This document shows positions 30,144 through 61,212 of a stretch of DNA of 64,000 bases, one piece after another. The position numbers and the translations under genes were made by a program. Position 1 is the stretch's first letter. Every line of letters starts with the position of its first letter. A model generated the notes under the pieces. That model searched no databases, had not been told where the DNA came from, and saw nothing but the letters and a program-made list of their open reading frames with translations. Origin of the DNA: an uncultured Chloroflexia bacterium (lineage in GTDB: Bacteria > Chloroflexota > Limnocylindria > Limnocylindrales > CSP1-4); contig CAVTMH010000002.1 in NCBI GenBank assembly GCA_963735785.1, positions 107,132-171,131 on the forward strand, written 5' to 3'.

Positions 30144-30575
30144 CTAGAGGCCCAACTGCACGTGGCGCCAGCGATCTTCGCCCCAGTTCGCCGGCCGGAG
30201 TCGCCTGAGCTCGGTGTCGTCCGGCAACGCGGCAACGTGCTCGACGAGCCTCGTGTGGGCCCGCTCCAGCCACGGAATGACCTCGTCCCGCGGCGCTTGC
30301 CCCTCCGGCCAGGGCTCGACCTCGGGCGTGCCCCACTGCAGGGTCCCGGTCCCGAACGCGTAGTCGTCGCACATGATCTTGCATGCGCCCACGTGGACGA
30401 CGATCGCCTCGATCGACCTCGCCCCCCCGTCTGGCAGCACCCGCCAGGCCTCTTGCGGCACCGTCGCAAGATTCGGCAGCAACGCCTGGCTCTCGTCCGT
30501 TTCCGCGATGCCGCGGCCTCGAAACGCCTCGTCGACGAGGTACAGCAGCGCCTCGATGCCACCGCGGCTCGCCAT
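30144..30575 (-). CDS. Hypothetical protein (143 aa), possibly a DinB/YfiT-like helical bundle
   Basis: ATG 30575 shares one nucleotide with the efp TGA. High-GC3 ORF. The family is a guess from general composition; no metal-binding triad was confirmed. Confidence 0.45.
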   Translation of the reverse strand: MASRGGIEALLYLVDEAFRGRGIAETDESQALLPNLATVPQEAWRVLPDGGARSIEAIVVHVGACKIMCDDYAFGTGTLQWGTPEVEPWPEGQAPRDEVIPWLERAHTRLVEHVAALPDDTELRRLRPANWGEDRWRHVQLGL

Positions 30576-31132
30576 CAGAGCCGCGTCTGGTACTCCCCGG
30601 TCCGTGTGTCGACGCGGATGGTGTCGCCGGGTTCGACGAAGATCGGGACCTGGACGATCAGCCCGGTCTCGGTCGTCGCGGGCTTGCGGGCGCCGGACTG
30701 AGTGTCGCCCGCGAACCCGGGCTCGGTCTCGACCACCGCGAGGTCGACGGTGACCGGCAGCTCGACGCCGATCGTCTCGCCCTGGTAGCTCGTGCGGTCG
30801 AGGGTCATGCCGTCCTTGAGGTACTGCGCGGTGTCGCCAAGCTGGTCGGCGGTGAGGACGAACTGGTCGTAGGTGTCGTTGTCCATGAAGTGGAAGTCGC
30901 GGTCGTCGCGATAGAGGAACTGGACCGGCCGCTTCTCCATCGAGGCGCGCGGCCACTTCGTCCCGGCCTGGAACGAGCGCTCCACGGTCTGGCCACGCTT
31001 GATGTTGCGGAGGGTGATCCGTACCTGGGCCGACCCTCGGCCCATCTTGATGTGGTGGTAATCGAGGATCTGCCAGAGCTCGCCGTCGAGCTCGATGGCC
31101 ACGCCCTTCTTGAGTTCGCCGGTGCTGATCAT
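30575..31132 (-). CDS. efp: Translation elongation factor P
   Basis: 185 aa. EF-P signature (..KKGVAIELDGELWQILDYHHIKMGRGSAQVRITLRNIKRGQ..) with three OB-like domains. Confidence 0.9.
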   Translation of the reverse strand: MISTGELKKGVAIELDGELWQILDYHHIKMGRGSAQVRITLRNIKRGQTVERSFQAGTKWPRASMEKRPVQFLYRDDRDFHFMDNDTYDQFVLTADQLGDTAQYLKDGMTLDRTSYQGETIGVELPVTVDLAVVETEPGFAGDTQSGARKPATTETGLIVQVPIFVEPGDTIRVDTRTGEYQTRL

Positions 31133-31239
31133 GTCGAGGTGGGCTCCTGCGTCGGACCGCCGGGCACGCGCCGACGGGACGGGGATGGTCGGGGTCGAGC
31201 GGCCATTCTAGCCGACGGCTGCCCCGCCCTCGGCGGGTG

Positions 31240-31836
31240 TCAGTCCCCGTTCTCGTAGATCCAGTCGTGCGTGATCGGTGCTCGCCCGTCGACGAACTCG
31301 TACGTCGTCTGGCCCTGCCCCGCGAGCGGCGTGCAGACGGCCGAGCAGCGGACGGTGATGGCTCGAACGGTGTCGTCAACCCCGTCGCCCCCCGGTCCGC
31401 CGCTTGCCATCTGGGTGCACATCTCGGCCGGCACGCCGACGCACGTCGGCTGGATGGGGAGCGGCGATGCGTCCTCCGGCCCGACCCGGGGTGGCTCGGG
31501 CGGCGCCTGGGGCTGCGGATGCGGAGCAGACGCCCATCCGTAGCCGGACGTCTCCGTGCGCCCATCGGCGAAGCGGATCGTGACTTCCGCTTCACCGGTG
31601 GCGTTCGTGCACACAGGCACGGTGCATCGCACCACGACCTGGACGACCGACCCTGGGGCTGCGCCGCTCACGTCGAACGCCTGTTGGCAGGCCGCTCGCG
31701 GCACGCCCTGGCAGACGACCTGGGGATCTCCGACGGGCCCGACCGGGACCGCCGGCAGGGCGTCACAGGCGACACCCAGCGCCGCGATGACACTGACGGC
31801 GAGGAGACGTCGACCGCGCATCACCGATGGTGGCAT
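31240..31836 (-). CDS. Putative secreted lipoprotein built from two tandem ~65-aa Cys-containing repeats
   Basis: Signal peptide plus PROSITE-style lipobox (MPPSVMRGRRLLAVSVIAALGVAC). Two homologous halves, each with a C-x7-C pair and a C-x3/4-C pair, ending in a conserved W (..GYGW / ..THDW). ATG 31836 overlaps the pepQ TGA. Confidence 0.5.
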   Translation of the reverse strand: MPPSVMRGRRLLAVSVIAALGVACDALPAVPVGPVGDPQVVCQGVPRAACQQAFDVSGAAPGSVVQVVVRCTVPVCTNATGEAEVTIRFADGRTETSGYGWASAPHPQPQAPPEPPRVGPEDASPLPIQPTCVGVPAEMCTQMASGGPGGDGVDDTVRAITVRCSAVCTPLAGQGQTTYEFVDGRAPITHDWIYENGD

Positions 31837-33067
31837 CAGCCGACGACTAGCACCTCGCGCGGAAAGCGCGTCACGCGCTCGACGCGGCCGGTGGCGGCAT
31901 CGAGCGTCGATGAGGTCCTCGATGCGCACGCCCATCTCCCCGTCGAGGTAGACGCCGGGCTCGACCGAGAAGACGGTCGGGCTCGGCAGCGGCGTCTCGG
32001 CTGCGCGTCTTGCCGAGCGACGGAGCTTCGTGGGTGGCGAGGCCGATCCCGTGGCCGGTGCCGTGACCGAAATGCTCGCCGTGGCCGCCCGCCTCGATGA
32101 TCGATCGCGCGACGGCGTCCACGGCCCGGCCGCTCGGCAGCTCCCCTCTGGCGGTCGCCGCGGCCTCGACGACCGCGATGGCGGCGGCCTGCGCCGCGGC
32201 CACGAGCTCGTAGACCGCCCAGGTCGCGCGGCGAGGGCTCGCCCACGAACAGGGTCCGGGTCATGTCGCTCCGATAGCCGGCCACCTGCGCCCCGAAGTC
32301 GAAGAGCAGCACCGCATCCGCGAGGATCGGTCGGTCGCCGGGCGCGCCGTGCGGCAGGGCGGCCTCCGGCCCGGACAGGCAGGCGACGTCGAACGCGAGC
32401 GCCTCGGCGCCGCCCGTCCGCATCAGCCACTCCAGCCGGAGCGCGAGCTCCGCCTCGGTCGCCCCGGGCCGGATCTCCGACAGGAGCGTCGCGAGGGCGC
32501 GGTCGGCGACGGCGCACGCGGCGGCGACGCGTTCCAGCTCGGCCGGCTCCTTGATCGCCCGGTCGGCCTCGACCCAGCCCTCGACCGGCACGAGCTCGAC
32601 GTCCGGGGCGGCTGCGGCCAGCCGCTGCCACGTCGCGTGCGAGACGAAGCCGGCCTCGACCCCGACGCGTCGCGCACCGACGGACCGGACCAGGTCCGGC
32701 CAGCGATCGGGCAGGTTGCCGTAGGCCTCGAACAGTCGCGCCTCGGGCGCCTCGCGACGGGCCTGGATCGTGTACCGCGAATCGGCCAGGACCACCGACC
32801 TCGTCGCCACCGACAAGGAACTGCCCGGAGTTGCCGGCCGACCTTCTCCTCACCCTCGGCGAGGGTGAACCCGGTCAGGTAGCGCATGTGCTCGCGGCGC
32901 ACGCCGAAGTAGGCATCGATGCCTTCGTCGGCGAACCGCGTGCGCAGGCGCCCGAGGCGCGCCGGACGCGCGGCTCGGTCGGCCTCCGCCCAGGCCCGCT
33001 GCTGCGCGGCGTCGGGGGGCGGGGCGAAGTCCTCGGGGTCGGGCCAGCCGTCCCGGGACGCGCTCAC
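31836..33067 (-). pseudogene. pepQ: Xaa-Pro aminopeptidase (M24B, PepP/PepQ-like) interrupted by five +1 frameshifts
   Basis: Creatinase-N and M24 catalytic segments are all present but spread over three frames. The segments are RLGRLRTRFADEGIDAYF..YLTGF; SAGNSGQFLVGGDEV; SVVLADSRYTIQA...MTRTLFVGEPSPRD; AVYELVAAAQAAAIAVV...HGTGHGIGLATHEAPSLG; PTVFSVEPGVYLDGEMGVRIEDLI; and LDAATGRVERVTRFPREVLVVG*. Shifts lie near 32845, 32796, 32218, ~31985 and 31905. ATG 33067 overlaps the mltG stop. Confidence 0.75.
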
Positions 33068-34467
33068 GGGATATAGCCGTACTTGCGCCGGTTCTCGTCG
33101 TGCTCGGCCTTGTTCTTGGCGAAGGCGTGCGAGCCGCCTCCCTCGGGGATCGCCAGGAAGTAGATGTACTTGTCCTCGGTATCGGGATGCAGCGCTGCGT
33201 CGATGGAGGCGAGCGTCGGCGTCACGATCGGTGCCGGGATGAGGCCCGGCTGCGTGTAGGTCTGGAAGCCAAGCAACGCATCCGGCAGGACGATGTCCTT
33301 GAGGCCGATGTCCTCGGGCACGGTCCAGAACACGTAGTCCTTCCAGGTCCCGAAGTCCCGCTCCTCGAGCTGCACGGTGTCGAACGCGTAGATGACCGTC
33401 GGGTCGGCGTTGAGGATCTTGTTCTTGATGCCGGGGATCCCGTCGATCCGGTTCTGGTAGACACCGGCGATCAGCGGGCGCTCCTCATTGACCACCGCCT
33501 CACGCTCCACGATCGAGGCGAGCGACAACACCTGGTAGAAGGTCAGGCCGCGCTCCTGCGGCACGGTCAGCTTTGCCTCCCCGACGGCGGCGATGAAGCC
33601 ATCGAGCATCCGGCGGATGAGCTCCTCCGGCGTGGTGTCCGGCAAGACGTTGTAGGTGCCCGGCCACAGGAACCCTTCCAGGGAGGGCGCAGTGCCCTCC
33701 GGCACGTCGCGGAGGACGCGTTCGAGCCACGGGTAGTCCGCGAGCAACGCCGCGGGCGGTTCCTTCGCGATCTCATAGAACTCGCGGGGGTCCATCTCGA
33801 GGGTGGGCAGCGTCTGGAGCTTGGCCGTGATCTGCTCGAGCCGAAGCTGCGTCCGCAGCGCGATCTGCACGAACGGGACCTCCGGCGGCGCGAGGAGCGC
33901 CACGACGAGTTGTTCCGGTGTCATGTTCCTCCGCAGGACGAAGGTCCCCTGCTGCAGATCGCCCGTGAGCTCCCGGTCGCTTGCGATGAACACGAACGCG
34001 CGGGCATCGCGGATGAGGTCCTGGTCAGCCAGGCGCGCCGCGATCGTCGTCGCGGTGTCGCCCTCCTCCACGAGGAACTCGACCTGCTCCGGGTCGTTCG
34101 AGACCGGCTCGGTCAGTGCGTCGCCGAGATCCTCGCGGACGAGATCCGCGACGAACGGCAGGTTGAGGGCGGCCGGGCTGTCGGCTGCCCAGCTGAGGAT
34201 CGCGGAGTTGACCAGCGGACGCAGCGCGGTCAGGGCGATGACCAGGACGAGCGCTGCGAGCATCAGCGCGAACACGAGGAACCTGGCGACCCCGCCCAGG
34301 CCGCCGCCACCGCCGCCACCGCGCCTGCCCCCGCCGCTGCCGTGGCCCGACCGTCGCGACGGCTCGTACGCCTCGGGCACGTAGTCGGTCGCGTAGGCGT
34401 CCGATTCGAACCTGCGGGCGTGGGGCTGGCGCCGGTCGCGCGGGCGTCCGCCGGAGCGGATCGTCAT
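33064..34467 (-). CDS. mltG: Endolytic murein transglycosylase MltG (YceG family)
   Basis: N-terminal TM helix plus YceG-like domain (..GTYNVLPDTTPEELIRRM..; ..IVEREAVVNEERPLIAGVYQNRI..). Confidence 0.85.
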   Translation of the reverse strand: MTIRSGGRPRDRRQPHARRFESDAYATDYVPEAYEPSRRSGHGSGGGRRGGGGGGGLGGVARFLVFALMLAALVLVIALTALRPLVNSAILSWAADSPAALNLPFVADLVREDLGDALTEPVSNDPEQVEFLVEEGDTATTIAARLADQDLIRDARAFVFIASDRELTGDLQQGTFVLRRNMTPEQLVVALLAPPEVPFVQIALRTQLRLEQITAKLQTLPTLEMDPREFYEIAKEPPAALLADYPWLERVLRDVPEGTAPSLEGFLWPGTYNVLPDTTPEELIRRMLDGFIAAVGEAKLTVPQERGLTFYQVLSLASIVEREAVVNEERPLIAGVYQNRIDGIPGIKNKILNADPTVIYAFDTVQLEERDFGTWKDYVFWTVPEDIGLKDIVLPDALLGFQTYTQPGLIPAPIVTPTLASIDAALHPDTEDKYIYFLAIPEGGGSHAFAKNKAEHDENRRKYGYIP

Positions 34468-34961
34468 CTGAGGATCTCCGGTGTGTGGGGCTCGGTAGGG
34501 GCGGACCCGGAGCGCCGGGTGTCGAGGGCATCTTGCAGGATGACGGCGGCCGCCTCGCGGTCGACCCGTGCCCGGTACTCGTTGCGCTGGTGGCGGGACG
34601 GCGGGCCGCCCGAGCGGCCACGCTTCATGGGGCCCAATCGCGTCTCGGCGACGTGGCTGCTCAGGCGCTCATCGTGCAGGGTGATCGCGACACGGTCGCC
34701 CAAACGGGCGCCGATGTTCCCCGCCCACGCTCTCGTGATGGCCGCCTGGGGACCTTCGTGCCCAGCGGCATCGATCGGCAGACCGATGACGAGCTCCTCG
34801 ATGTCGTGCGCCGTGATGAGTGCAAGCAGCGATGCGGCATCGAGGCCCGCGTGACGCCCGCGTCGGATGGTCGTCAGTGGCCGCGCCCCAGCGCCCGGGC
34901 CGTCCGCGATGGCGACGCCGATGCGCCGCTCCCCGAGGTCGATGCCCAGGGCCCGCGTCAT
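34464..34961 (-). CDS. ruvX: Holliday-junction resolvase-like nuclease RuvX (YqgF)
   Basis: MTRALGIDLGERRIGVAIAD.. RNase-H-like YqgF signature. ATGA overlaps at both ends. Confidence 0.85.
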   Translation of the reverse strand: MTRALGIDLGERRIGVAIADGPGAGARPLTTIRRGRHAGLDAASLLALITAHDIEELVIGLPIDAAGHEGPQAAITRAWAGNIGARLGDRVAITLHDERLSSHVAETRLGPMKRGRSGGPPSRHQRNEYRARVDREAAAVILQDALDTRRSGSAPTEPHTPEILR

Positions 34962-36967
34962 CGCGATCCCTCCGGCTCGGAGGCGGGCGACTCGGATACG
35001 ACGGGGGCCGCGGACGCCCGCCCAGGTCCATCGGACGCGGCAGGACCGACCGTCTCGACCTCGACCCGCGATTCGATCGTCGGGATCGTGCCCACCCAGT
35101 CGGGCCAGACGGTCAGTTCGGCCTCGCCGTAGGTCGCAAGGATCTCGCGTGCCTGGGCCAGGGGCTTGCCCATGATGTCGGCCTCGATGGCCGCCGGATC
35201 GAGAACGAGGACCTGGCGGGCGGTCACGACGACCGGGAAGGTGATGACCCCGTTCGAGATCTCGGCCGGGGCCGGGACCACCTGGCCCGAGCGCTCGACG
35301 AGGACGAAGCCCGGCTCCACGCTGGAGGCGATCCGCGCCTCGGCGACGGTCTGCACGGGGGCGGTATCGACCGCCACGACCGTCCCTGTCGCGGTCGCCG
35401 CGAGCTCGAAGGTCTCCACCTCCTCGCCGACCCGGGTGGCCGGATCGACCGCGAACGTCGGGTCTCCGAGGGCCTTCGTCTCGGGGAACACCGTCGCGGA
35501 ATCCCCAGGCAGGTCGGGGTCGTCGAGTCGCTCGTCGAACGCCGCGCTCAACCGATCTCGCAGGGCAATGATCGCCGCGTCGATGTCCTCCTGCCGCACG
35601 CGCGGGAATTCGGTGCGCGAGCCACCCGTGGTCGCCTCCGGATTCGTCACATTCAGAAACGCACCGGTCTCCCCGCGAGGGGTCTCGGTGATCCTTCGTG
35701 CCTCGACGTTCCCGTCGGGTCCCGCATCCACTGCGGTCACGCCGACCGATCTGTTGGACGGGATGACCTCGAATCCGTCATCTGACGCTACGAGGTCAGC
35801 CGGTGGCAGGGTGACGTTCTCGTCTGTCCGGAACTGGATGCCGGACTCAGTGCTCACGACGGAACCGCTCCTTATCGTATTTGAGCTGGTCGGGTCGAGG
35901 TTGTCGAAACGGACCGTGCCTTTCGCCTTCTCCTCCTCGATCCGTTGCCCGGTCGCCGGGAAGCTGTCGCTCGCTTCGACGTCGACCGTCAGCGACTGCG
36001 CCGGCACGACACCGCCGGCGGGATCGGGCTCGGTCGCGCTGGTGCTCGCCACGATCCGCATGGACACGGGACCGATGCTGGCCTCGCGCGGCGTGATGAC
36101 GGCCGTCGCCGTCGGGAGGTAGAGGTACGCACCGACACCGCCGACGACGAGCGCGAGGGCGGCCACGGCGAGGCCGATGACCAGCGGCGTTCGACCGATC
36201 GTTGGGCGGAAGGCCCGTCCGAATGGGTCCAGGCGTCGCGGTCCGGGCCGGTCGAGATCCATGGCGGGGGTGTCGGCCACGACCCTTGCCGCCGGGATCG
36301 CCGCCGGAGCACGCGCGCCGCCCCTCGGTCCTCGCGTCGACCTGGGTGACGATCGCGTCGCTTCGCCCGGCGTCGCCGCATCGCCCCACAGCCCGGCGGT
36401 CGCGGCGACGGCACCCGCGGCGCCGGTCCCCGCGGCAGCGGCGCCCGCCGCGCCCGCGTCGGCGGCTCGACCCGGCGTCGCGACCGTCTCGCTGATGAGC
36501 ATCGGCTCCAGGTCGACATCCGGACCGGCGCCGGGCTCGGCAGCCGTGGCGGCCGCCCCCGTCGCCGCCGCCCCGGTCGCCACCGCCCCCGGCGCGTCAT
36601 CCGTCGCCGCGGCATCCTCTGGGCCGACCGCCACCGCGGCGGCAGCAGGACCAGCATCGACCGCCGGCGCACCCTTCGCCGGACGGCCTGCCTCGCCGGA
36701 CGTCTCGTACTCCGCGACCGTCGCGAAGATGGGCAGGCCGGCCGATGCCGCGAGCGCCCGCGTCGCGGGGTCGCCCGCGATGATCGACAGCTGCTTGCCG
36801 TTCGTCATGGCGTCACGGGCGAGCAACCGGAAGTTGATGCGCGAGGTCGCGACGCGCGAGCCGTACGGGAGCACGACGGCCACGCGGCTCCCATCCCAGC
36901 CCCGGATCCGCGCGGCCGCCGACGTGATCTCGTCGTCGACATCGAGGTAGATGACGCCGGCTGCCAC
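34958..36967 (-). CDS. Large single-pass membrane protein, function unknown
   Basis: Domain order: ~95-aa cytoplasmic N-domain; ~170-aa Ala/Gly/Pro-rich low-complexity linker; one TM helix (LVIGLAVAALALVVGGVGAYLYL); ~370-aa extracytoplasmic beta-rich domain. GTG at 36967 lies 2 nt after the upstream FtsA-like stop; the track start at 37234 would overlap that gene by 265 nt. Confidence 0.6.
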   Translation of the reverse strand: MAAGVIYLDVDDEITSAAARIRGWDGSRVAVVLPYGSRVATSRINFRLLARDAMTNGKQLSIIAGDPATRALAASAGLPIFATVAEYETSGEAGRPAKGAPAVDAGPAAAAVAVGPEDAAATDDAPGAVATGAAATGAAATAAEPGAGPDVDLEPMLISETVATPGRAADAGAAGAAAAGTGAAGAVAATAGLWGDAATPGEATRSSPRSTRGPRGGARAPAAIPAARVVADTPAMDLDRPGPRRLDPFGRAFRPTIGRTPLVIGLAVAALALVVGGVGAYLYLPTATAVITPREASIGPVSMRIVASTSATEPDPAGGVVPAQSLTVDVEASDSFPATGQRIEEEKAKGTVRFDNLDPTSSNTIRSGSVVSTESGIQFRTDENVTLPPADLVASDDGFEVIPSNRSVGVTAVDAGPDGNVEARRITETPRGETGAFLNVTNPEATTGGSRTEFPRVRQEDIDAAIIALRDRLSAAFDERLDDPDLPGDSATVFPETKALGDPTFAVDPATRVGEEVETFELAATATGTVVAVDTAPVQTVAEARIASSVEPGFVLVERSGQVVPAPAEISNGVITFPVVVTARQVLVLDPAAIEADIMGKPLAQAREILATYGEAELTVWPDWVGTIPTIESRVEVETVGPAASDGPGRASAAPVVSESPASEPEGSR

Positions 36968-36969
36968 GA

Positions 36970-38232
36970 TCAGACCCGCATCGCGCGCAGGACCCGGCGC
37001 AGGGCCACGTCGAGCGCGTCCTCGGTAGTCTGCAGCTCGATGGCCTGGTAGGCGAGCCCGAGCGGGGTCACGTCCTGCTGGTCGACCAGCAGCGCGGTGG
37101 CATCGACGACCGTTTCGATCTGGTCTGGCGCCATCACGATGACCTCGGGCGGTCGGGCGAACGGCATGGGCTTCCAGAAGGACTCGGCGGCCAGAGCGGC
37201 CTCGATCTCGGGCAGCCGCGAGCCGCCACCGCACAGGTAGATCCGCGACGGAAGCAGGTCGCCGCCCGACAGCTCCTCCATGACGAGCTCGACGCCTGCC
37301 GCCCAGACGCGGACATCGTCCGCGACGATCCCGGCCACGTCGTCACGCGCGTCGACCGGCAGCCCGCGGGCGTAGTCGACCTTGAGCGCCTCGGCGCGCG
37401 GGAACGGCAGGTCGAGGCGGTCGGCGAGCGACTTCGTGAACGCGCGGCCGCCCAGCGCGAACATGCGAGTCCCCTCGATCCCGCCCTGGCGCACGAGCGC
37501 GACGTCGGTCGTTCCGCCGCCAACGTCGACGAACAGTGCCCCGGCCTGGCGGACCTGCTCGGTGCCGAGCACGCGCGCGACCGCATACGGCTCCGCCACG
37601 ATCTCGAGCAGTTCCAGGTCCAGCTGTGAGGCGACGCTCTGGAGCGCGCCGAGGTGGACGAGCGGCGCGAACGCGTTGAAGATCCCGATCTTGACGTGGC
37701 GACCCTGGAAGCCGACCGGATTGGTGAGCGCATAGCCGTCGATGGCGGCACCCGTGACCGCGGCATGCACGAGCCGCACGTCCACGTGCGGCAGCCCGGT
37801 CTCCCACGTGATGGCCCGCTCCGCCTCGCGGAGCGCCTCGCGCTGGACCGAATCGATGAGCTTCTGGAGCTCGTTCTCGGTGATCGGCTGATCGGGCTTC
37901 TTGCGCTCCTGGCTGTGGGTCGTGGTGAAGCCCTTGACGAGCTCGCCGGCGATGCCGATCACGACCTGGGTCGGCCGGAAGCCGGCCATCTCCTCTGCTT
38001 CCTGGAGGGCGACGGCGCAGTTGTCGACGACAGCCGCGATGTCCGCGACCGTGCCCGACTGCATATGGGCGAGGCCCTGGCGCTTGCGGCCGACGCCGCG
38101 CACCGTCCCGAGACCGGCGTCGTCGATCTCGAAGACGAGGGCCTTGGCGAACTCGGTGCCGATGTCGAGCGCCGTGCAGATGGCGAGGCTCTCGGCCTCG
38201 TCACGTTGCCAGATGCGACGCCAGAAGGCCAT
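36970..38232 (-). CDS. FtsA/PilM-like actin-fold ATPase (420 aa), located outside any dcw cluster
   Basis: N-terminal phosphate-1 motif (LDIGTEFAKALVFE). Region TVADIAAVVDNCAVALQEAEEMAGFRPTQVVIGIAG aligns with FtsA. Second-lobe motif FVDVGGGTTDVALV. The start shares one nucleotide with the alaS stop. Confidence 0.7.
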   Translation of the reverse strand: MAFWRRIWQRDEAESLAICTALDIGTEFAKALVFEIDDAGLGTVRGVGRKRQGLAHMQSGTVADIAAVVDNCAVALQEAEEMAGFRPTQVVIGIAGELVKGFTTTHSQERKKPDQPITENELQKLIDSVQREALREAERAITWETGLPHVDVRLVHAAVTGAAIDGYALTNPVGFQGRHVKIGIFNAFAPLVHLGALQSVASQLDLELLEIVAEPYAVARVLGTEQVRQAGALFVDVGGGTTDVALVRQGGIEGTRMFALGGRAFTKSLADRLDLPFPRAEALKVDYARGLPVDARDDVAGIVADDVRVWAAGVELVMEELSGGDLLPSRIYLCGGGSRLPEIEAALAAESFWKPMPFARPPEVIVMAPDQIETVVDATALLVDQQDVTPLGLAYQAIELQTTEDALDVALRRVLRAMRV

Positions 38233-41006
38233 CAGCCCTCCGCGTCGATGCGGCCGAGGAGCGCGTCCCGGAGGGCGTTCCGCGCGTCCGTGAGGCCGCC
38301 GCGATCGGTGCCCATGCCCTGTGCCATCTGCGGTCGACCACCGCCCTTCGCCCCGATCGGCCCAGCGGCGGCCCTGACGAGGTCGCCGGCCCCGATCCCG
38401 CGCTCGACCAGGTCATCGGACACCGTTACGAAGACCTGCGGCGCCTCGGCGTCGAGGAACAGCGCGATGACCCCCGACGGCAGCGCGTGGCGGATCGCCT
38501 TCGCGGCGGCCTTGAGCGCGTCCATGGACTCGTACGGGATCGCGGCCGCGACGAGCCGCACGCCCGGGGCCACCTCCTCCGCCTTCGCCGCCAACTCGGT
38601 CGGCTGCGGCACCCCGGTCGCAGCCCCCGCCCTGAGTCGGCGCTTCGTGTCGCGCAACTCCTCCTGCAACGCGGCGATGCGATCTTCGACAGCCTCGATG
38701 GTCTGGGCCCCGACCGCCCCGGCGACACGGTCCAGGACTTCGCCGCGTTCACGTGCCAGCCGGTCCGCCCCGACGCCGGTGAGGGCTTCGATCCGGCGCT
38801 GGCCCGAGCCGATGCTGCGCTCGCCGGTGATGACGAAGCCGCCGACCTGGCCCGTGGCCCGGCAATGCGTCCCCCCGCACAGCTCGAAGCTGTAGTCCTC
38901 GACCCGGATGGTGCGCACGGTCTCGCCGTACTTCTCGTCGAAGAAGGCGTCCGCCCCCTGCTCGATCGCATCGGCCATCGGCATGAACGCGACCGTGACC
39001 TGGCGGTCGTCGCGGACGATGCGTCGGACCTCGTCCTCGATCGCGCGCGTCTCGTCGTCGGTCAGGGCGCGATCGAACGGGTAGTCGAAGCGGAGCGAGT
39101 CGGGCGTCACGAGCGACCCCGCCTGGCGGGCACGATCGCCGACCACGTTGCGGAGCGCCCGGTGCAGCAGGTGGGTCCCGGTGTGATTGCGCATCGTGTG
39201 CGCACGCCGCTCGGCGTCCACCACGGCCTGGACCGTCTCCCCGACGCGCACGCGACCGTGCAACGTGCCGCGCTGGACGATCAGCCCTCCGACCGGCCGC
39301 TGCGTGTCGGTCACGGTGAACAGCTCGCTGCCGCCGCCCGGTTCTCGGATCGTGCCCTGGTCCCCGACCTGGCCGCCGCCCTCCGCGTAGAACGGCGTGC
39401 GATCGAGCACGACCTCCGCCTCGCCATGGCCGGTGAGCTCGTCGAACTCCAGGCCGTCGCGCACGATGGCCACGACCCGCCCCTCGGCGGTCGTCGCCTC
39501 GTAGCCCAGGAACTCGGTGTCGCCGTGGCGCCCCTGGATCGCGCTGTACAGCGACGTCAGTTCGGCGTGACGGCTGAGCTCGGCCTTCTTGCCAGAGCGG
39601 CTGCGCTCTCGCTGTTCCGCGAGGGCATCGTGGAACCCGGCGAGATCGACGGCGCAACCGTATTCGGCGGCGAGCTCCACGGTCAGATCGACCGGAAACC
39701 CGTAGGTATCGTGGAGCCGGAACGCGACATCGCCATCGAGGACCGGCGCAGCCGCGGGCAGGTCCTCCGGCCGGCGGCCGATGACCCGGTCGGGTAAGGT
39801 CCCGCCCGCGGTCTCGCGGATCGCCTCGTCGAGGAGCCGGGACCCAGCGTCGAGGGTCCGCGCGAACTGGGCCTCCTCGCGCGCGATGGTCGAGAGGATC
39901 ACGTCGCGTTTCTCGGCCAGGTGCGGATGTGCCTCGGCCATCGTGTCGATGACGACGATCGCCGCCTCCGCCATGAACGGATCGCGCCGGCCGAGGAGCC
40001 GACCGTGACGCACGGCTCGGCGCAGGATCCGACGCAGGACGTAGCCCCTCCCTTCATTGCCAGGAAGGACGTCATCGGCGATGAGGAACGTGACGGCACG
40101 TGCGTGGTCTGCGATGACCTGGTAGCTGAAACGCTCCCCCTCGAACGTGTCCGGGTCGTGCCCGAGCAGCTCCTGCATCCGGGCGTGGATCGGCGTGAAC
40201 AGGTCGGTGTCGTAGTTGGTGGGGACCTGCTGGATGACGCTCGCAAGACGCTCGAGGCCCATGCCGGTGTCGACGCCAGGGGCGGGCAGCGGCTTCAGCG
40301 AGCCGTCCGGCTGGAGGTCGAACTCCATGAAGACCAGGTTCCAGATCTCGAGCCAGCGCGGGCACTGCTCGCTGTGGTCCGGGACGCAGTGGGGGCCCTC
40401 CGACAGGTGGGCACCGCGATCGAAGTGGATCTCGCTGCACGGCCCACACGGCCCGACGTCGGCCATGCGCCACCAGTTCTTCTCGTCACCCTTGGGGAAG
40501 TCGCCCCAGCGGGCGAGCCGGTCCGGCGGGAGGCCGATCTCGTCGCGCCAAACCTCGAAGGCGAGGTCGTCGGTGGTGTACGTCGTGGCGGCGAGCCGCT
40601 CGCCCGGTATGCCAAGGTCGCGCGTGAGGAAATCCCAGGCCCAGTGGATCGCCTCACGCTTGAAGTAGTCCCCGAAGGACCAATTGCCGAGCATCTCGAA
40701 GAATGTGTGGTGTCGGGGCGTCCGGCCGACCTCCTCGAAGTCGTTGTGCTTGCCTGCCACGCGGAGGACGCGCTGGTAATCGACTGCTCGCGTGTAGCTG
40801 CGCTTCTCAGTGCCGGTCAGGACGTCCTTGAACTGGACCATCCCCGAGTTCGTGAACAGCAGCGTCTGGTCACCAGCAGGGACGAGGCTGGCGCCGGGAA
40901 CGACCGTATGGTCACGCTCGGCGAAGAACTCGAGGAACCGCCGTCGGATCTCCGCGGACGGCAACGAACGGATCCGGGGATCCCGGGTGACGGATGGGGT
41001 CGACAT
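38232..41006 (-). CDS. alaS: Alanine--tRNA ligase
   Basis: Class II aaRS motifs, editing-domain HxxxH/CxxxH and C-terminal DHHA1. ATG 41006 (MSTPSVTRDPRIRSLPSAEIRRRFLEFF..) was chosen over the upstream Arg-rich track start. Confidence 0.9.
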   Translation of the reverse strand: MSTPSVTRDPRIRSLPSAEIRRRFLEFFAERDHTVVPGASLVPAGDQTLLFTNSGMVQFKDVLTGTEKRSYTRAVDYQRVLRVAGKHNDFEEVGRTPRHHTFFEMLGNWSFGDYFKREAIHWAWDFLTRDLGIPGERLAATTYTTDDLAFEVWRDEIGLPPDRLARWGDFPKGDEKNWWRMADVGPCGPCSEIHFDRGAHLSEGPHCVPDHSEQCPRWLEIWNLVFMEFDLQPDGSLKPLPAPGVDTGMGLERLASVIQQVPTNYDTDLFTPIHARMQELLGHDPDTFEGERFSYQVIADHARAVTFLIADDVLPGNEGRGYVLRRILRRAVRHGRLLGRRDPFMAEAAIVVIDTMAEAHPHLAEKRDVILSTIAREEAQFARTLDAGSRLLDEAIRETAGGTLPDRVIGRRPEDLPAAAPVLDGDVAFRLHDTYGFPVDLTVELAAEYGCAVDLAGFHDALAEQRERSRSGKKAELSRHAELTSLYSAIQGRHGDTEFLGYEATTAEGRVVAIVRDGLEFDELTGHGEAEVVLDRTPFYAEGGGQVGDQGTIREPGGGSELFTVTDTQRPVGGLIVQRGTLHGRVRVGETVQAVVDAERRAHTMRNHTGTHLLHRALRNVVGDRARQAGSLVTPDSLRFDYPFDRALTDDETRAIEDEVRRIVRDDRQVTVAFMPMADAIEQGADAFFDEKYGETVRTIRVEDYSFELCGGTHCRATGQVGGFVITGERSIGSGQRRIEALTGVGADRLARERGEVLDRVAGAVGAQTIEAVEDRIAALQEELRDTKRRLRAGAATGVPQPTELAAKAEEVAPGVRLVAAAIPYESMDALKAAAKAIRHALPSGVIALFLDAEAPQVFVTVSDDLVERGIGAGDLVRAAAGPIGAKGGGRPQMAQGMGTDRGGLTDARNALRDALLGRIDAEG

Positions 41007-41572
41007 CGGCCGCAATGGTACCGAACCGAGCCGGGCGGGCTCTGTCATGCATCCGTGATCCGGGCAACACCGGCGACGGTGCGGCGGCCGAAGGGGCCCC
41101 GCTCGAGCTCGCATGGCTGGTCTCGCAGGTCGACGGGGCCAGCTGTCTGCCCCTCGAGGGCGCGATCGTCGATGTCTGGCATTGCGACGCCCTCGGCGTC
41201 TATTCCGGTGTGCAGGGCAGCCCGGGGACCGACTTCCTGCGCGGATTCCAGCGCACCGACGCGAACGGGGCGGCCTCGTTCACGACCATCTACCCGGGCT
41301 GGTACACGGGCCGCGCCGTGCACATCCATTTCAAGATCCGCACGGACCCCGACGCCGAAGCCGGGTTCGAGTTCACCTCGCAGCTGTTCTTCGACGACGC
41401 GCTCAGTCAGCAGGTCTACACGTCGGGCGTCTACGCGTCGAAGGGCCCGCAGGACCAGACGAACCAGAGCGATGGCATCTTCAACCAGAGCGGCGGGGCA
41501 ACGCTCCTGGACGTGACCAAGGTCGGCGACAGCTATAAGACGACATTCGAGATCGCGGTCCAGCTCGCCTGA
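40994..41572 (+). CDS. Intradiol ring-cleavage dioxygenase-like core, apparently N-terminally truncated (possible gene remnant)
   Basis: PLELAWLVSQVDGASCLPLEGAIVDVWHCDALGVYSG...TDANGAASFTTIYPGWYTGRAVHIHFKI matches the intradiol dioxygenase beta-sandwich. The expected ~80-aa N-terminal region and signal are missing. The only in-frame ATGs (40994, 41015) overlap or abut the alaS start on the other strand. Confidence 0.4.
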   Translation: MGSTSAAMVPNRAGRALSCIRDPGNTGDGAAAEGAPLELAWLVSQVDGASCLPLEGAIVDVWHCDALGVYSGVQGSPGTDFLRGFQRTDANGAASFTTIYPGWYTGRAVHIHFKIRTDPDAEAGFEFTSQLFFDDALSQQVYTSGVYASKGPQDQTNQSDGIFNQSGGATLLDVTKVGDSYKTTFEIAVQLA

Positions 41573-44378: not shown

Positions 44379-46121
44379 TCAGTCGAGGGCGCGCCGCAGG
44401 AATGCCGCCATCTGGCCGCGGGTGACGCTGGCCGTCGGGCAGTACTTGCGCGTGCCGCAGCCGCCGGTCTGCCCGGCGTGGGCCAGCGCGTTGATCGAGC
44501 TCTCGCCGCTCCGGCCATCGTCGTCATCGAAGTAGTCGGTGCCGGCGGGGGCCAACGGGAGGTTCTGTTCCTTCACGAGGAAGATCGCCATCTCCTCGCG
44601 GCTCACGGAGCGCTTGGGGCAGTACAGCGTGGGGCTGCCGCAGCCGCTCGTGATGTTGGCCTCACGCAAGGCGTTGATGGCGCTCTCGCCCGACAGGCCC
44701 TCATCGTCCGTGAAGTAGTCCGTGCTGGTCGATGGATGGTTGAAGCCCCGGACGAGGAAGATCGCCATCTGCTCTCGCGTCACCGGGGACGATGGGCAGT
44801 ACCGGCCGTTGCCGCAACCGACCGTGATGCCCTCGTAGTAGATCCAATGGATCGCATCGAGGAAGCTCGAGCTGGCGATGTCCGTGAATTCCGGGGCGAT
44901 GACCCGATAGAGGGCGCCGCTGAGATCGGTCACGAACAGCTCGCCCGACTCGCTTTCCCCGAACGAGCTGATCATCAGGCCCGTGTCGCGGCGAAGCGTT
45001 TCGCCCGAGCCGTTGGCGTTCATCGTCCACAGCCGGCCGCTGCAGAAGTCGCCGTACACGTACAGCCCGCGCAGGTCCCGGTGCGAGCCGCGGTAGACGT
45101 AGCCGCCGGTGATCGAGCAGCCCAGGTTGTGCGAGTACTGCGCGACGGGGAGCGTGTCCCCGGCCAGGCTGCAGCCGCTCGACGGCTCGAAGCAGAGCGA
45201 GCCCTCCATGACGTCCCAGCCATAGTTGTTGCCGCCCGGATCGGCGGCGTCCTCGAGGTTGACCTCCTCGCGTCGCCCCTGGCCGACGTCGGCGATGTAC
45301 AGGTCGCCGGTCGCCCGGTCGAACGTGATGCGCCACGGGTTGCGGAGACCGTAGTCCCAGATCTCGTCGCGGCCCGCCGTCGCCCCCGCGAACGGGTTGT
45401 CGGCCGGGATGCTGTAGTGGTTGTGCGGCCCGGCGCCGGTGCCGTCAGGGTTGATGCGGAGGATCTTGCCGAGCAACGTGGACTTGTCCTGGCCGTTCTC
45501 GTCCGGGTCACCCGCGCCGCCACCGTCGCCCGTCGCGATATAGAGATGGTTGTCCGACCCGAACGCCAGGGCGCCACCGTTGTGGTTCGATCGGGGGTGG
45601 TCGATGGTGAGGAGGACGTACTCGGTCGTGAGGCTCGCATGCGTTCGGGCGGTGTTGGCCGTGAGCCGGGAGATCCGGAGGTCGCCGCCCGGGCGGGTGT
45701 AATAGACGTAGAGGTATCCGTTCGTCTCGAATTCCGGATGGAACGCAAGCCCGAGGAGGCCCCGCTCGCCGCCGGCCGCGATGCGCGAGCTGATATCGAG
45801 GAACGGCGAGGACTGGAGCCTCCCGCTCTTGACCACGCGCACCCGCCCACCACGCTGGACGACGAACAGGCGGTCGGACCCATCACCCGCGTGGGTGACC
45901 CCGAGCGGGCTGCTCAACCCGCCGGTGACGCGTACGACCGTCAGCTGCCCGGATCGCAGGGCGGCGGTTTCGATCGCCTCGGCGGCGGGCTTGAGGGGCG
46001 CCGCCGGTGGCGGCGGGTCGCCCGCGGCGACCGGGGCCGCGGCCGGCAGGACGGCCAACAACCCCAGCATGACCGCGACCATGGTCGCGAACGCGGATCG
46101 ACGGCGTGGACGTGAAGACAT
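44379..46121 (-). CDS. PQQ-dependent sugar (glucose/sorbosone) dehydrogenase with signal peptide and three C-terminal SLH domains
   Basis: GSDH beta-propeller motifs (RLFVVQRGGRVRVV.., GLLGLAFHPEF.., HNGGALAFGSDNHLYIATGDGG). Followed by three tandem SLH repeats (..CGNGRYCPSSPVTREQMAIFLVRGF, ..CPKRSVSREEMAIFLVKE, ..CPTASVTRGQMAAFLRRAL). Confidence 0.8.
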   Translation of the reverse strand: MSSRPRRRSAFATMVAVMLGLLAVLPAAAPVAAGDPPPPAAPLKPAAEAIETAALRSGQLTVVRVTGGLSSPLGVTHAGDGSDRLFVVQRGGRVRVVKSGRLQSSPFLDISSRIAAGGERGLLGLAFHPEFETNGYLYVYYTRPGGDLRISRLTANTARTHASLTTEYVLLTIDHPRSNHNGGALAFGSDNHLYIATGDGGGAGDPDENGQDKSTLLGKILRINPDGTGAGPHNHYSIPADNPFAGATAGRDEIWDYGLRNPWRITFDRATGDLYIADVGQGRREEVNLEDAADPGGNNYGWDVMEGSLCFEPSSGCSLAGDTLPVAQYSHNLGCSITGGYVYRGSHRDLRGLYVYGDFCSGRLWTMNANGSGETLRRDTGLMISSFGESESGELFVTDLSGALYRVIAPEFTDIASSSFLDAIHWIYYEGITVGCGNGRYCPSSPVTREQMAIFLVRGFNHPSTSTDYFTDDEGLSGESAINALREANITSGCGSPTLYCPKRSVSREEMAIFLVKEQNLPLAPAGTDYFDDDDGRSGESSINALAHAGQTGGCGTRKYCPTASVTRGQMAAFLRRALD

Positions 46122-46136
46122 GGCTGTCCCTCCGGG

Positions 46137-47426
46137 TTATGGCTCGGCGAACGCTCGGAAGAGGAAAGCGGTCATCTGACCGCGTGTGACGCTGGACGAC
46201 GGGCAGTATCGGTCGGGGCCGCAGCCCGTCGTGATCCCCGCCTCGAAGAGGCTGTCGATGGCGGCTTCGAACATGGATCCGTCGTCATCCACGAAGTGAT
46301 CAGGCTCGACCGGTGGCGGGAGTGCGAGCGCTCGCACGAGGAACGCCGCCATCTCACCACGTGTCACCGTCCGGCTCGGGCAGTACCGCCGTTCGCCACA
46401 GCCGCCGGTGATGCCGGCCTTGGCCATGCGGTTGATGCTCGCCTCGCCGGTCACACCGTTGTCGTCATCGAAGAAGTTCTGGTTCGTCGGACCCAGGTGC
46501 ATCGCGCGGTCGATGAACAGCGCCATCTGGGCGCGCGTCACCGGATTCCCCGGGCAGAACATGTCCAGGTTGCAGCCGACGGTGATGCCGTTCTCGTAGG
46601 CCCATTCGATGTGGGGCTCGAACGTGTTGCCGGAGTAGTCGGTGATGCAGCCCCGACCCGTGTTGACGACCGTGATCGAGGAGCCGCTGGAGTTGAACCG
46701 GACCCGCGTCCAGCCGCAGTCGCCGGTCTCGTCTGACTCCAGGAACCAGTCATGCGGATCGGGCATCGCGCGGACCGTGTACGTGCCGCCCGGGAGACCG
46801 GTGATGTCGATGAACTGGAACGGGAGGTTCCAGCGATACGTGTCCGCCCACCCCACGGAGATGCCCGTGCGCGAGGTCAACGCCGTCCGCCCACCGCAGC
46901 CGGACTCGCGATACACCGGACCGTTGGGAGATCGCGGGAGGCTCGGGGACCACAGGGTGGTGTCGAAGAAGCAGAACCCGATCTTGCGATCGGCCCGGGT
47001 GGCCCGGCTGGACCACAGGTGATAGACCATCATCTGCTCGACGTGCCAGTGGTTGTGGCCGTCACCCGCGAACCGCAGCGTGGCGTCCGTCGCGACACGG
47101 CGCTCCCCGCCGGCGTCGTCGTCGATGACCTGGCGGACCGTCCACGGTGACGATGCGCTGGGTCGGCGTGCGAGCACCTCGATGGGACCGGCGCCGACAT
47201 TGACCAGGATGCTCGTGAAGCGCAGTAGCCGGCGGCCGCCGGAGTTGACGATCCTGAACTGGGACGGATTGGCGGCGCGCAGGTTCGGCAGCCGATCGTC
47301 GGCAGCCACCGCCGTCGGCGCGACCCACGCCGGGGCCAGGGCGATGAGGGCGAGGGATGCGGCGAACAGGAGGCGTCGAACGGACCCGCGGCCCGTATGG
47401 CGCTTCGTCACCCCGTCACGGTACAC
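46137..47426 (-). CDS. Lysyl oxidase-like (LOX catalytic domain) copper amine oxidase with signal peptide and three C-terminal SLH domains
   Basis: Aligns block by block with the animal LOX catalytic domain. His-rich copper site GDGHNHWHVEQMMVYHL matches WEWHSCHQHYH. KIGFCFFDTT matches KASFCLEDTS. GISVGWADTYRWNLPFQFIDITGLPGGTYTV matches [31 protein letters not shown]. Three SLH repeats follow. Confidence 0.7.
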   Translation of the reverse strand: MYRDGVTKRHTGRGSVRRLLFAASLALIALAPAWVAPTAVAADDRLPNLRAANPSQFRIVNSGGRRLLRFTSILVNVGAGPIEVLARRPSASSPWTVRQVIDDDAGGERRVATDATLRFAGDGHNHWHVEQMMVYHLWSSRATRADRKIGFCFFDTTLWSPSLPRSPNGPVYRESGCGGRTALTSRTGISVGWADTYRWNLPFQFIDITGLPGGTYTVRAMPDPHDWFLESDETGDCGWTRVRFNSSGSSITVVNTGRGCITDYSGNTFEPHIEWAYENGITVGCNLDMFCPGNPVTRAQMALFIDRAMHLGPTNQNFFDDDNGVTGEASINRMAKAGITGGCGERRYCPSRTVTRGEMAAFLVRALALPPPVEPDHFVDDDGSMFEAAIDSLFEAGITTGCGPDRYCPSSSVTRGQMTAFLFRAFAEP

Positions 47427-61201: not shown

Positions 61202-61212
61202 GCGCGGTGCGC

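Follow-up and report, generated by a model that had tools for sequence, protein, structure and literature searches.

A conserved gene pair for an FtsA-class actin-like ATPase and a baseplate J-like membrane protein between alaS and ruvX in Limnocylindria-type Chloroflexota

Gene order and synteny at the alaS-ruvX locus

In the 64,000-nucleotide stretch of Chloroflexota DNA analysed here (the window), two minus-strand genes lie between alaS and ruvX, followed by mltG and a pepQ-type peptidase gene (Table 1). This placement, proposed in a preliminary description of the sequence, is borne out, and Pfam confirms the identities of ruvX and mltG. The first gene encodes an FtsA-like actin-fold ATPase (database names "cell division protein FtsA" and "FtsA domain-containing protein") and the second a membrane protein, hereafter the partner ("baseplate J/gp47 family protein"). 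The pair is as tightly coupled as originally described: the ATG of the ATPase gene overlaps the alaS stop codon by 1 nt (TGATG), 2 nt separate its own stop from the GTG of the partner gene (TGA-TC-GTG), and the ruvX start overlaps the partner stop (ATGA). Similar overlaps join ruvX to mltG (ATGA) and mltG to pepQ (GTGA). The GTG at 36967 is the most likely start of the partner gene; a 758-aa maximal ORF was rejected as an artefact of high GC content. The real start of alaS is probably downstream of the maximal-ORF start, at about 41006-41048, and its orthologues in two related loci (L001 and L002) are 917-931 aa long with the Pfam domains tRNA-synt_2c, tRNA_SAD, and DHHA1. A plus-strand Dioxygenase_C ORF (40994-41572) overlaps the extended 5' end of alaS, and genes for SLH-domain proteins, syntenic in relatives, are located 6-9 kb upstream.

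Table 1 Coordinates in the window of the genes and protein features at the locus
Feature	Residues	Position	Strand	Basis or remark
alaS (alanyl-tRNA synthetase)		38232..41114	-	maximal ORF
FtsA-family actin-like ATPase	420 aa	36970..38232	-	PF14450, TIGR01174
ATPase N-terminal aromatic/basic extension MAFWRRIWQR	1-10	38203..38232	-	conserved
ATPase phosphate-2 motif FVDVGGGTTDVA	234-245	37498..37533	-	direct reading; invariant in homologue alignment A3
ATPase C-terminal amphipathic helix ALDVALRRVLRAMRV	406-420	36973..37017	-	putative membrane-targeting sequence
Partner, bitopic membrane protein	669 aa	34958..36967	-	start-codon analysis, homologues, AlphaFold
Partner cytoplasmic N-terminal alpha/beta domain	1-94	36686..36967	-	pLDDT ~95; motifs YLDxDDEIT, GSRxATSRINFRLL
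Partner disordered Ala/Gly/Pro linker	95-259 (165 aa)	36191..36685	-	AlphaFold pLDDT <50
Partner linker motif RxPAAIPAARVVADTP	219-234	36266..36313	-	conserved in alignment A1
Partner single transmembrane helix	260-282	36122..36190	-	hydropathy up to 2.5 over 19 aa; helix in AlphaFold model
Partner extracytoplasmic ectodomain	283-640	35048..36121	-	baseplate wedge (J/gp47) fold; AlphaFold pLDDT >95 over 286-640
Partner beta-barrel sub-domain	346-453	35609..35932	-	only sequence-level Baseplate_J signal
ruvX (YqgF)		34464..34961	-	Pfam PF03652, 6.5e-28
mltG (YceG)		33064..34467	-	Pfam PF02618, 2.1e-59
pepQ-type M24 peptidase gene		31839..33067	-	four frameshifts; tblastn

Firmicutes and Actinobacteria typically carry an alaS-ruvX-mltG cluster, whereas E. 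coli-type Proteobacteria typically do not, and the earlier statement that these genes adjoin in most bacteria was too broad. The pepQ gene, previously taken for a remnant, has its full length but is interrupted by four frameshifts: in tblastn, the intact L001 and L002 orthologues aligned as five collinear segments, spread over three frames, with 72-91% identity. Co-transcription through to efp, also proposed, is unsupported, and the content of the pepQ-efp interval varies among relatives.

Among related loci from 85 different species, all Limnocylindria-type Chloroflexota, the order alaS, FtsA-like gene, partner gene, ruvX, mltG is kept in every locus that is sufficiently long. The partner family comprises 980 representatives at E<=1e-30; the gene occurs in at least 506 GTDB species and stays adjacent to the ATPase gene even where ectodomain identity falls to 32%. 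Rather than a local insertion into the operon, as first described, the pair is an old, fixed, and routine element of synteny in this clade. GC content is uniform across the locus.

An FtsA-class ATPase with two conserved terminal peptides

The first gene matches the Pfam FtsA family PF14450 above its cutoff (6.9e-14, 52.7 bits against 31.8), in agreement with its initial assignment to the FtsA/PilM class. The nucleotide-binding motifs, read directly from the translation, are intact, comprising phosphate-1 (ALDIGTEFAK), phosphate-2 (FVDVGGGTTDVA, which aligns with the DIGAGT/GGGT motif of FtsA), and adenosine (LCGGGS). The top PDB sequence match is FtsA 7q6f (3e-15, aa 18-292), and the FtsA alignment passes through the 1C region and fades near residue 292, so that the FtsZ-binding region of FtsA is not recognisably conserved. 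With the FtsA equivalog model TIGR01174 the protein reaches 109 bits (2e-31), far below the cutoff of 175.85. The leading Foldseek matches are FtsA (1e-14) and PilM (9e-14), while MreB is more distant (PDB E 1e-6) and the MreB NCBIfam models score far under their cutoffs. AlphaFold modelled the ATPase poorly (pLDDT 58.5), at a confidence too low to verify the 1C and 2B sub-domains structurally.

Both termini carry conserved peptides. As in FtsA, a C-terminal amphipathic helix (ALDVALRRVLRAMRV) follows a short variable linker; its hydrophobic moment of 0.76 is the maximum within the protein, and the C-terminal consensus LDxALRRVLRAMxV is common to 70 species. Unlike FtsA, the protein also bears an N-terminal Phe/Trp/Arg peptide with the 90% consensus MAFxRRIWxR in 70 species, in which F3, W4, R5, and R10 are invariant in alignment A3, and which may be a membrane or partner contact. 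The median identity of the ATPase among 80 relatives is 88.8%, compared with 89.7% for EF-P and 75.2% for AlaS (63-88% identity to relatives). This lies well beyond what we would expect for FtsA and is a constraint typical of cytoskeletal proteins. A further difference from FtsA is genomic context: as previously recognised, the gene is neither beside ftsZ nor in a dcw cluster, and neither ftsZ nor a second ftsA was found in the window or in the 85 related loci.

The fold similarity to PilM, nearly equal to that to FtsA, raises the alternative that the pair, like PilM and PilN, forms an inner-membrane platform, whether for a type IV pilus, a competence system, or a secretion system. PilM proteins have a bitopic partner encoded immediately downstream, an arrangement also found here, and the cytoplasmic N-terminus of PilN binds PilM. 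However, neither PilM model reaches its cutoff (PF11104, 21.7 against 27; TIGR01175, 31.5 against 133), the partner has neither a PilN nor a PilO domain, and no pilO/P/Q, pilB/C/T, or pilin genes occur within 10 kb in the window or in relatives. The ATPase moreover has its own putative C-terminal membrane helix, and such an amphipathic helix is not known as a feature of PilM. We regard such a platform as highly improbable.

A bitopic partner with a baseplate J-like ectodomain

The anatomy first read from the translation (cytoplasmic domain, low-complexity linker, one transmembrane helix, ectodomain) agrees with the AlphaFold model of the partner (m5c6eec34e76a, overall pLDDT 78). The N-terminal 94-aa domain, which has no Pfam family match, is much more strongly conserved than the ectodomain (74.7% against 49%), which would fit a contact with the extremely conserved ATPase, and its many invariant polar residues imply a conserved cytoplasmic ligand. 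The linker (A 32%, G 14%, P 12%) varies in length, with indels in alignment A1 and imperfect 15-nt tandem repeats in its DNA at 36401-36595. Its last 55 aa, next to the membrane, are strongly basic (pI 12) and include the motif RxPAAIPAARVVADTP, in which R219, P221, P225, A226, R228, V229, A231, D232, and P234 are invariant or nearly so in A1; this putative docking peptide is weaker in distant family members. With Arg-rich sequence (pI 12) on the N side of the transmembrane helix and an acidic ectodomain (pI 4.2) on the other, the positive-inside rule predicts an N-in/C-out orientation.

The conserved cytoplasmic domain also bears on the possibility that the two genes merely travel together in a housekeeping operon and are functionally independent, one encoding FtsA or a paralogue working with FtsZ, the other an unrelated envelope protein. 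The operon already mixes unrelated genes (alaS, ruvX, mltG, and pepQ), so co-transcription alone says little about function, and databases plainly call the first gene a cell division protein. Against this stand the 2-nt spacing, the invariable adjacency despite ectodomain divergence, and the striking conservation of the cytoplasmic domain with its invariant polar residues, and we consider independent function quite unlikely.

When the ectodomain is scanned alone, it passes the cutoff of Pfam Baseplate_J (PF04865; 3e-5, 23.9 bits against 21.1), over profile positions 21-113 of 255. The barrel sub-domain matches the PHROG_6 baseplate wedge subunit at 1.3e-11 and the barrel of GlxA at 4e-4. Invariant ectodomain residues are mainly Gly, Ala, Pro, Asn, or hydrophobic, and no catalytic constellation is found among them. 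As anticipated, PilN, PilO, and FtsQ domains are absent from the Pfam matches of the partner, even at E values up to 10 for the ectodomain. The preliminary description had allowed that the pair might amount to lineage-specific synteny of known division genes. The synteny is indeed routine in the clade, but the partner returns Baseplate_J and phage wedge proteins instead of a well-characterised division or pilus family.

The partner resembles the wedge protein J of phages and contractile injection systems (P2 gpJ, Mu gp47, T4 gp6, and TssF of T6SS) in its Pfam and PHROG_6 matches and in its fold, and its gene could be what is left of a prophage, tailocin, or contractile injection system after decay at this site. 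In contrast to those proteins, however, the partner has an N-terminal transmembrane anchor, carries a cytoplasmic domain and a long linker in the same chain, and is encoded among housekeeping genes, with sheath, tube, spike, and other wedge genes absent nearby. Its Pfam match covers only part of the profile. Its J-like part is predicted to face outward, and no baseplate protein of phage tails or T6SS is known to be membrane-anchored in this way. The lack of any tblastn match to the partner in 50,697 phage genomes, the absence of a PADLOC hit, the uniform GC content, and the unchanged location of the gene among housekeeping genes in 85 or more species all argue against a phage remnant, which we judge extremely improbable.

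A possible transmembrane module for division or wall growth

We propose, with a probability of roughly 0.5, that an FtsA-class filament tethered to the membrane connects through it with a structural J-like ectodomain, and that this module serves cell division or the growth of the septal wall. The first gene product would be a derived FtsA-class ATPase that binds ATP and forms polymers along the cytoplasmic side of the membrane, held there by its C-terminal amphipathic helix and perhaps aided by the N-terminal Phe/Trp/Arg peptide. The partner might dock on it through the cytoplasmic alpha/beta domain or through the short peptide in the basic juxtamembrane stretch, and the flexible linker and transmembrane helix would join this contact to the acidic ectodomain. 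The latter may be a cellular homologue of phage wedge protein J/gp47 that provides a scaffold or a unit for oligomerisation in the wall compartment; its fold and the lack of a catalytic constellation would fit such a non-enzymatic role.

The logic would be that of FtsA-FtsN, PilM-PilN, and MreB-RodZ, with a different partner. Like FtsN and FtsQ/DivIB, which work with an actin-fold ATPase of this class, the partner is a single-pass protein, its N-terminus predicted to lie in the cytoplasm and a large domain outside. Unlike them, it combines a folded 94-aa cytoplasmic domain with a baseplate-J ectodomain and lacks the SPOR domain of FtsN and the POTRA domain of FtsQ. The original suggestion that the pair is an envelope or division module outside described systems is plausible and accords with a literature search that returned no paper on the pair.

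The same two-protein transmembrane module could instead serve elongation or an outer envelope layer (S-layer or secondary wall polymer), as an analogue of MreB-RodZ. The partner layout of folded cytoplasmic domain, linker, transmembrane helix, and beta-rich ectodomain parallels that of RodZ, and the degree of conservation of the ATPase is like that of MreB. The gene for MltG, an elongation-linked glycan-strand terminase, is two genes downstream, and the upstream SLH-domain genes would also fit. However, the cluster of alaS, ruvX, and mltG is the more ancient arrangement, so that any link to MltG may be incidental and the proximity of the pair to its gene simply inherited. We consider a role in elongation or an outer layer unlikely: the ATPase is nearer to FtsA and PilM than to MreB in PDB and family-model comparisons, its C-terminal amphipathic helix is a hallmark of FtsA, and the cytoplasmic domain of the partner is an alpha/beta fold, unlike the helix-turn-helix of RodZ.

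Layout and distribution of the locus

Between alaS and ruvX, the window encodes an FtsA-like ATPase and a bitopic membrane protein (hereafter the partner); open reading frames, Pfam matches, and synteny confirm this placement, as observed in the preliminary description. Translational coupling had also been proposed, and it holds from alaS to pepQ because the genes are joined by overlaps or a 2-nt gap at all five junctions (TGATG at alaS/ftsA-like, TGA-TC-GTG at ftsA-like/partner, ATGA at both partner/ruvX and ruvX/mltG, and GTGA at mltG/pepQ). GTG at 36967 is the sole start codon in the long partner ORF ending at 34958 that fits the homologues. The GC content of the region is approximately 71%, without a compositional break. 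No consensus promoter or intrinsic terminator was found between 29.5 and 42.5 kb of the window, and a search for RNA elements (Rfam) returned nothing but a distant tRNA. A Dioxygenase_C-like ORF overlaps the first ~120 nt of the maximal alaS ORF, and in relatives the divergent dioxygenase gene at the 5' side of alaS is longer (277 to 284 aa). Thus, alaS probably starts downstream of 41114, and the dioxygenase gene may be truncated in the window.

Coordinates of the features discussed, with median protein identities across the related loci
Feature	Position in window	Strand	Remark	Median identity to window protein
314-aa ORF	16260-17201	-		
efp	30575-31132	-	ORF list	89.7%
pepQ, broken	31839-33067	-	follows mltG in transcription order	
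mltG	33064-34467	-	Pfam-confirmed YceG/MltG	59.0%
ruvX	34464-34961	-	Pfam-confirmed RuvX	61.7%
Partner (J-like), 669 aa	34958-36967	-	GTG start, 2 bases past the stop of the ftsA-like gene	
Partner N-domain				74.7%
Partner ectodomain				49.0%
Last ectodomain sub-domain	35033-35215	-	partner aa 585-645	
Linker tandem repeats	36401-36595	-		
ftsA-like, 420 aa	36970-38232	-	ORF list	88.8%
alaS	38232-41114	-	ORF list	75.2%
Dioxygenase_C-like ORF	40994-41572	+		
Two SLH-domain genes	44382-47426	-	adjoining	
Mur ligase, FemAB-family transferase, MurJ	58492-63854	-		

The pepQ-type Xaa-Pro peptidase gene, previously regarded as a remnant, is indeed broken, but it is full length, with five collinear pieces in three frames corresponding to four frameshifts. 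Its relatives carry Creatinase_N and Peptidase_M24 domains, and the surrounding alaS, ftsA-like, J-like, ruvX, and mltG genes are all intact; the breaks reflect either recent pseudogenization or an error in the local assembly. The operon, which had been drawn through to efp, probably stops short of it, since the interval between pepQ and efp varies among loci. It holds a small putative lipoprotein ORF in the window (31133-31838), several short ORFs without annotation in the related locus L001 (15034-19566), and an APH + aminotransferase gene on the opposite strand in the related locus L002 (15022-17453).

The order alaS, FtsA-like, J-like, ruvX, mltG is present in every sufficiently long locus among 85 from different species, followed by pepQ and efp wherever the flank reaches them. 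It persists even where the partner is only 32% to 45% identical, including one member labelled Dormibacteraeota, and a walk outward from the 32%-identical member reached only proteins labelled Chloroflexota or Dormibacteraeota, with the same synteny. The earlier interpretation is supported in part: the pair still fits no described system but is routine for this clade. More than 1,800 homologues of the partner were scored; the named ones appear as "baseplate J/gp47 family protein" and are attributed to Candidatus Limnocylindrales, Limnocylindria, or Chloroflexota. A profile search with the partner against 1.84 billion cluster representatives yielded 980 matches at E<=1e-30 and 7,983 at E<=1e-3, the weaker of which probably include genuine phage J proteins. 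At least 506 genomes in a GTDB scan (one genome per species) encode a relative with the N-domain motifs, and nearly all of the best 80 are labelled Chloroflexota. Scanning metagenomes for AT-rich codon versions of the N-domain motif gave only five chance matches full of stop codons, and therefore no support for the module beyond the high-GC clade. Published values for Ca. Limnocylindria (2.39 Mb, 68.9% GC; PMC10608941) are in line with the window.

Submitters assigned four loci (L033, L044, L068, and L070) to Thermomicrobiales, Anaerolineaceae, or Candidatus Eisenbacteria; their FtsA-like genes are 77% to 90% identical, and the gene order is kept in the first three, L070 being too short to show all of it. 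These assignments are probably due to imprecise or wrong MAG classification, not to a broader distribution of the module. Public gene calls for three homologous database proteins fuse the module with its neighbors (J-like with RuvX in P0031 and P0316, and the AlaS C-terminus with FtsA-like in P0124). We rejected these as natural fusions indicative of interaction: the fused parts diverge out of frame in the alignment and are frameshift or gene-calling artefacts that arise from the overlapping stop and start codons.

An FtsA-like ATPase outside the dcw cluster

The ATPase is a member of the actin superfamily, in its FtsA/PilM branch. Its Pfam match to FtsA (PF14450) scores 52.7 bits (cutoff 31.8), with weaker matches to MreB, PilM, EutA, and Hsp70. 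The FtsA equivalog model TIGR01174 (NCBIfam) aligns over positions 3-255 of 371 (E = 2e-31) with 109.4 bits, below its cutoff of 175.85, and PRK09472 scores 58 against a cutoff of 409. The closest solved structure by sequence is FtsA (7q6f, E = 3e-15, residues 18-292), followed by EutJ, MreB, and PilM. Direct reading finds the nucleotide-binding motifs intact (phosphate-1 ALDIGTEFAK, phosphate-2 FVDVGGGTTDVA, and adenosine LCGGGS); all three align to the FtsA motifs and are invariant in 25 homologues. Identity as PilM was rejected, with PF11104 at 21.7 (cutoff 27), TIGR01175 at 31.5 (cutoff 133), and no pilus genes nearby.

In FtsA, sub-domain 1C replaces sub-domain 1B of actin, and sub-domain 2B binds the C-terminal peptide of FtsZ. 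The HMM alignment with 7q6f is unbroken through residues 96-171, the stretch of sub-domain 1C, where the pLDDT of the AlphaFold model falls below 50; similarity to FtsA is lost past approximately residue 292. The model is poor as a whole (pLDDT 58.5), since no homologue below 87% identity could be retrieved, and a Foldseek search with this poor model placed FtsA (1e-14) and PilM (9e-14) at the top. A C-terminal amphipathic helix tethers FtsA to the membrane, and PilM has none. The last 15 residues of the ATPase, ALDVALRRVLRAMRV (406-420), have the highest helical hydrophobic moment of the protein (0.76), and this amphipathic helix is conserved in 70 species after a variable spacer of 6 to 7 residues. 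As judged from sequence, it is a putative membrane-targeting helix of the FtsA type behind a flexible linker. The first ten residues (MAFWRRIWQR) form a conserved aromatic and basic peptide.

Across the related loci, the gene is always located between alaS and the J-like gene, neither beside ftsZ nor in a dcw cluster, and no FtsZ-like sequence or second ftsA was found in the 64-kb window or the 85 related loci. The product thus scores below the FtsA equivalog cutoff and is encoded outside the usual ftsA context; accordingly, PGAP calls it "cell division FtsA domain-containing protein", whereas IMG names it FtsA. A paper on Chloroflexota reports dcw genes for Dehalococcoidia only.

A bitopic partner with a baseplate J-like ectodomain

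The AlphaFold model of the partner, built on an alignment of 108 homologues, comprises a confident beta-alpha-beta-alpha-beta-alpha domain without a Pfam family (residues 1-94), a disordered linker (95-259), a transmembrane helix (260-282), and a mostly beta ectodomain with pLDDT above 95 (286-640). The linker is rich in Ala (32%), Gly (14%), and Pro (12%) and variable in length. Imperfect 15-nt (five-codon) tandem repeats encode it, consistent with the length differences between species. The last 55 linker residues have a pI of 12 and the ectodomain a pI of 4.2; given this basic juxtamembrane stretch and acidic ectodomain, the positive-inside rule would put the N-terminus on the cytoplasmic side and the large domain on the other.

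The full-length partner has no match to Baseplate_J (PF04865) at E<=0.1; the ectodomain alone scores 23.9 bits against a cutoff of 21.1 (profile positions 21-113 of 255), its relatives reach 29 to 47 bits, and PHROG_6 matches at 1.3e-11. The ectodomain has the wedge-protein fold of baseplate protein J, from which the partner differs in architecture and genomic context. A phage origin of the locus was rejected: a tblastn search with the ectodomain had no match among 50,697 phage genomes. The genomic context of the partner lacks a contractile-tail gene cluster (sheath, tube, spike, gpI/gp48-type partner); in all loci its neighbors are alaS, ruvX, mltG, pepQ, efp, mnmA, and an iscS-like gene. A two-gene module that is fixed in place, neither a recent insertion nor a phage remnant, is what the evidence supports. 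Automatic annotation as "baseplate J/gp47 family protein" is misleading here and could lead to a housekeeping locus being flagged as prophage. To our knowledge, the partner would be without precedent as a housekeeping relative of the phage/T6SS baseplate wedge protein that is anchored in the membrane and faces outward.

Identity of the partner as PilN, PilO, FtsQ, or a POTRA protein was rejected for want of any Pfam match, which agrees with the original exclusion of PilN/PilO and FtsQ. FtsQ/DivIB has POTRA and FtsQ domains, whereas the partner ectodomain has the baseplate J fold and no PF08478 or PF03799 match at E<=10. Unlike RodZ, the partner lacks an N-terminal helix-turn-helix that binds MreB. 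A defence system was also rejected (PADLOC: none for the partner, a negligible match for the ATPase). Searching the literature for baseplate J in combination with FtsA, Chloroflexi, actin-like, or peptidoglycan, for FtsA-like proteins in Chloroflexi, and for alaS/ruvX/mltG yielded nothing relevant. Overall, we regard the pair as an actin-like ATPase and a bitopic adaptor whose ectodomain is an unexpected, exapted baseplate fold.

The last sub-domain of the ectodomain (helix-helix-strand-strand) contains a conserved GKxLxxAxxIL...G...VWPDWV motif. A PASTA-like reading of GKxLxxAxxIL was discarded, the sole match being to chymotrypsin inhibitor 2 and not significant (E ~0.5).

Conservation and putative role in the envelope

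The ATPase evolves at the pace of EF-P and less rapidly than AlaS, which is unusual for an FtsA-family protein. In the partner, the cytoplasmic domain is far more conserved than the external one, as expected if the N-domain contacts the ATPase. Given that the pair is fixed throughout the class and shows the conservation of a translation factor, it is very likely central to growth or division. We infer contact, polymerization, orientation, and the process served as follows. The FtsA-class ATPase would form filaments held at the membrane by its own amphipathic helix and dock on the partner, either at its cytoplasmic domain or at its juxtamembrane peptide; the partner ectodomain would act as a scaffold in the wall compartment. 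The same logic applies to FtsA-FtsN, PilM-PilN, and MreB-RodZ. The process served may be division or septal wall growth, which is favored because of the FtsA-type features; the main rival is a role in elongation or in an envelope layer. The arrangement alaS-ruvX-mltG is common in Firmicutes and Actinobacteria, and the link to MltG is thus weak evidence, since the pair may have landed inside it.

Limnocylindria are abundant, mostly uncultured Chloroflexota of soil and freshwater, and we know of no work on their cell biology. If the two proteins bind, they would represent a fourth design of actin-like filament and bitopic adaptor, beside FtsA-FtsN, PilM-PilN, and MreB-RodZ, and a concrete case in which the cell envelope has co-opted a structural fold of phages. 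A far-reaching and rather unlikely reading (probability roughly 0.15) is that Limnocylindria, and possibly Dormibacterota, possess an essential, undescribed morphogenetic or cytokinetic machine, in which membrane-bound filaments of an ultra-conserved FtsA paralogue are connected, via a flexible linker, to a wedge protein exapted from the phage baseplate that builds rings or lattices on the outer face of the membrane. If true, a component of the contractile-tail baseplate would have been domesticated for envelope construction.

Elsewhere in the window, two secreted proteins have S-layer homology (SLH) domains, one with a glucose/sorbosone dehydrogenase (GSDH) domain and the other lysyl-oxidase-like; the GSDH/SLH gene is syntenic in relatives. 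This suggests an envelope with proteins anchored via SLH domains. The genes for a Mur ligase, a FemAB-family transferase, and MurJ are directly upstream of relA/spoT and away from any dcw cluster. The 314-aa ORF, which has a strong coding GC3 bias (0.92) and no Pfam family, is located upstream of a pseudouridine-synthase-like gene, near scpA.
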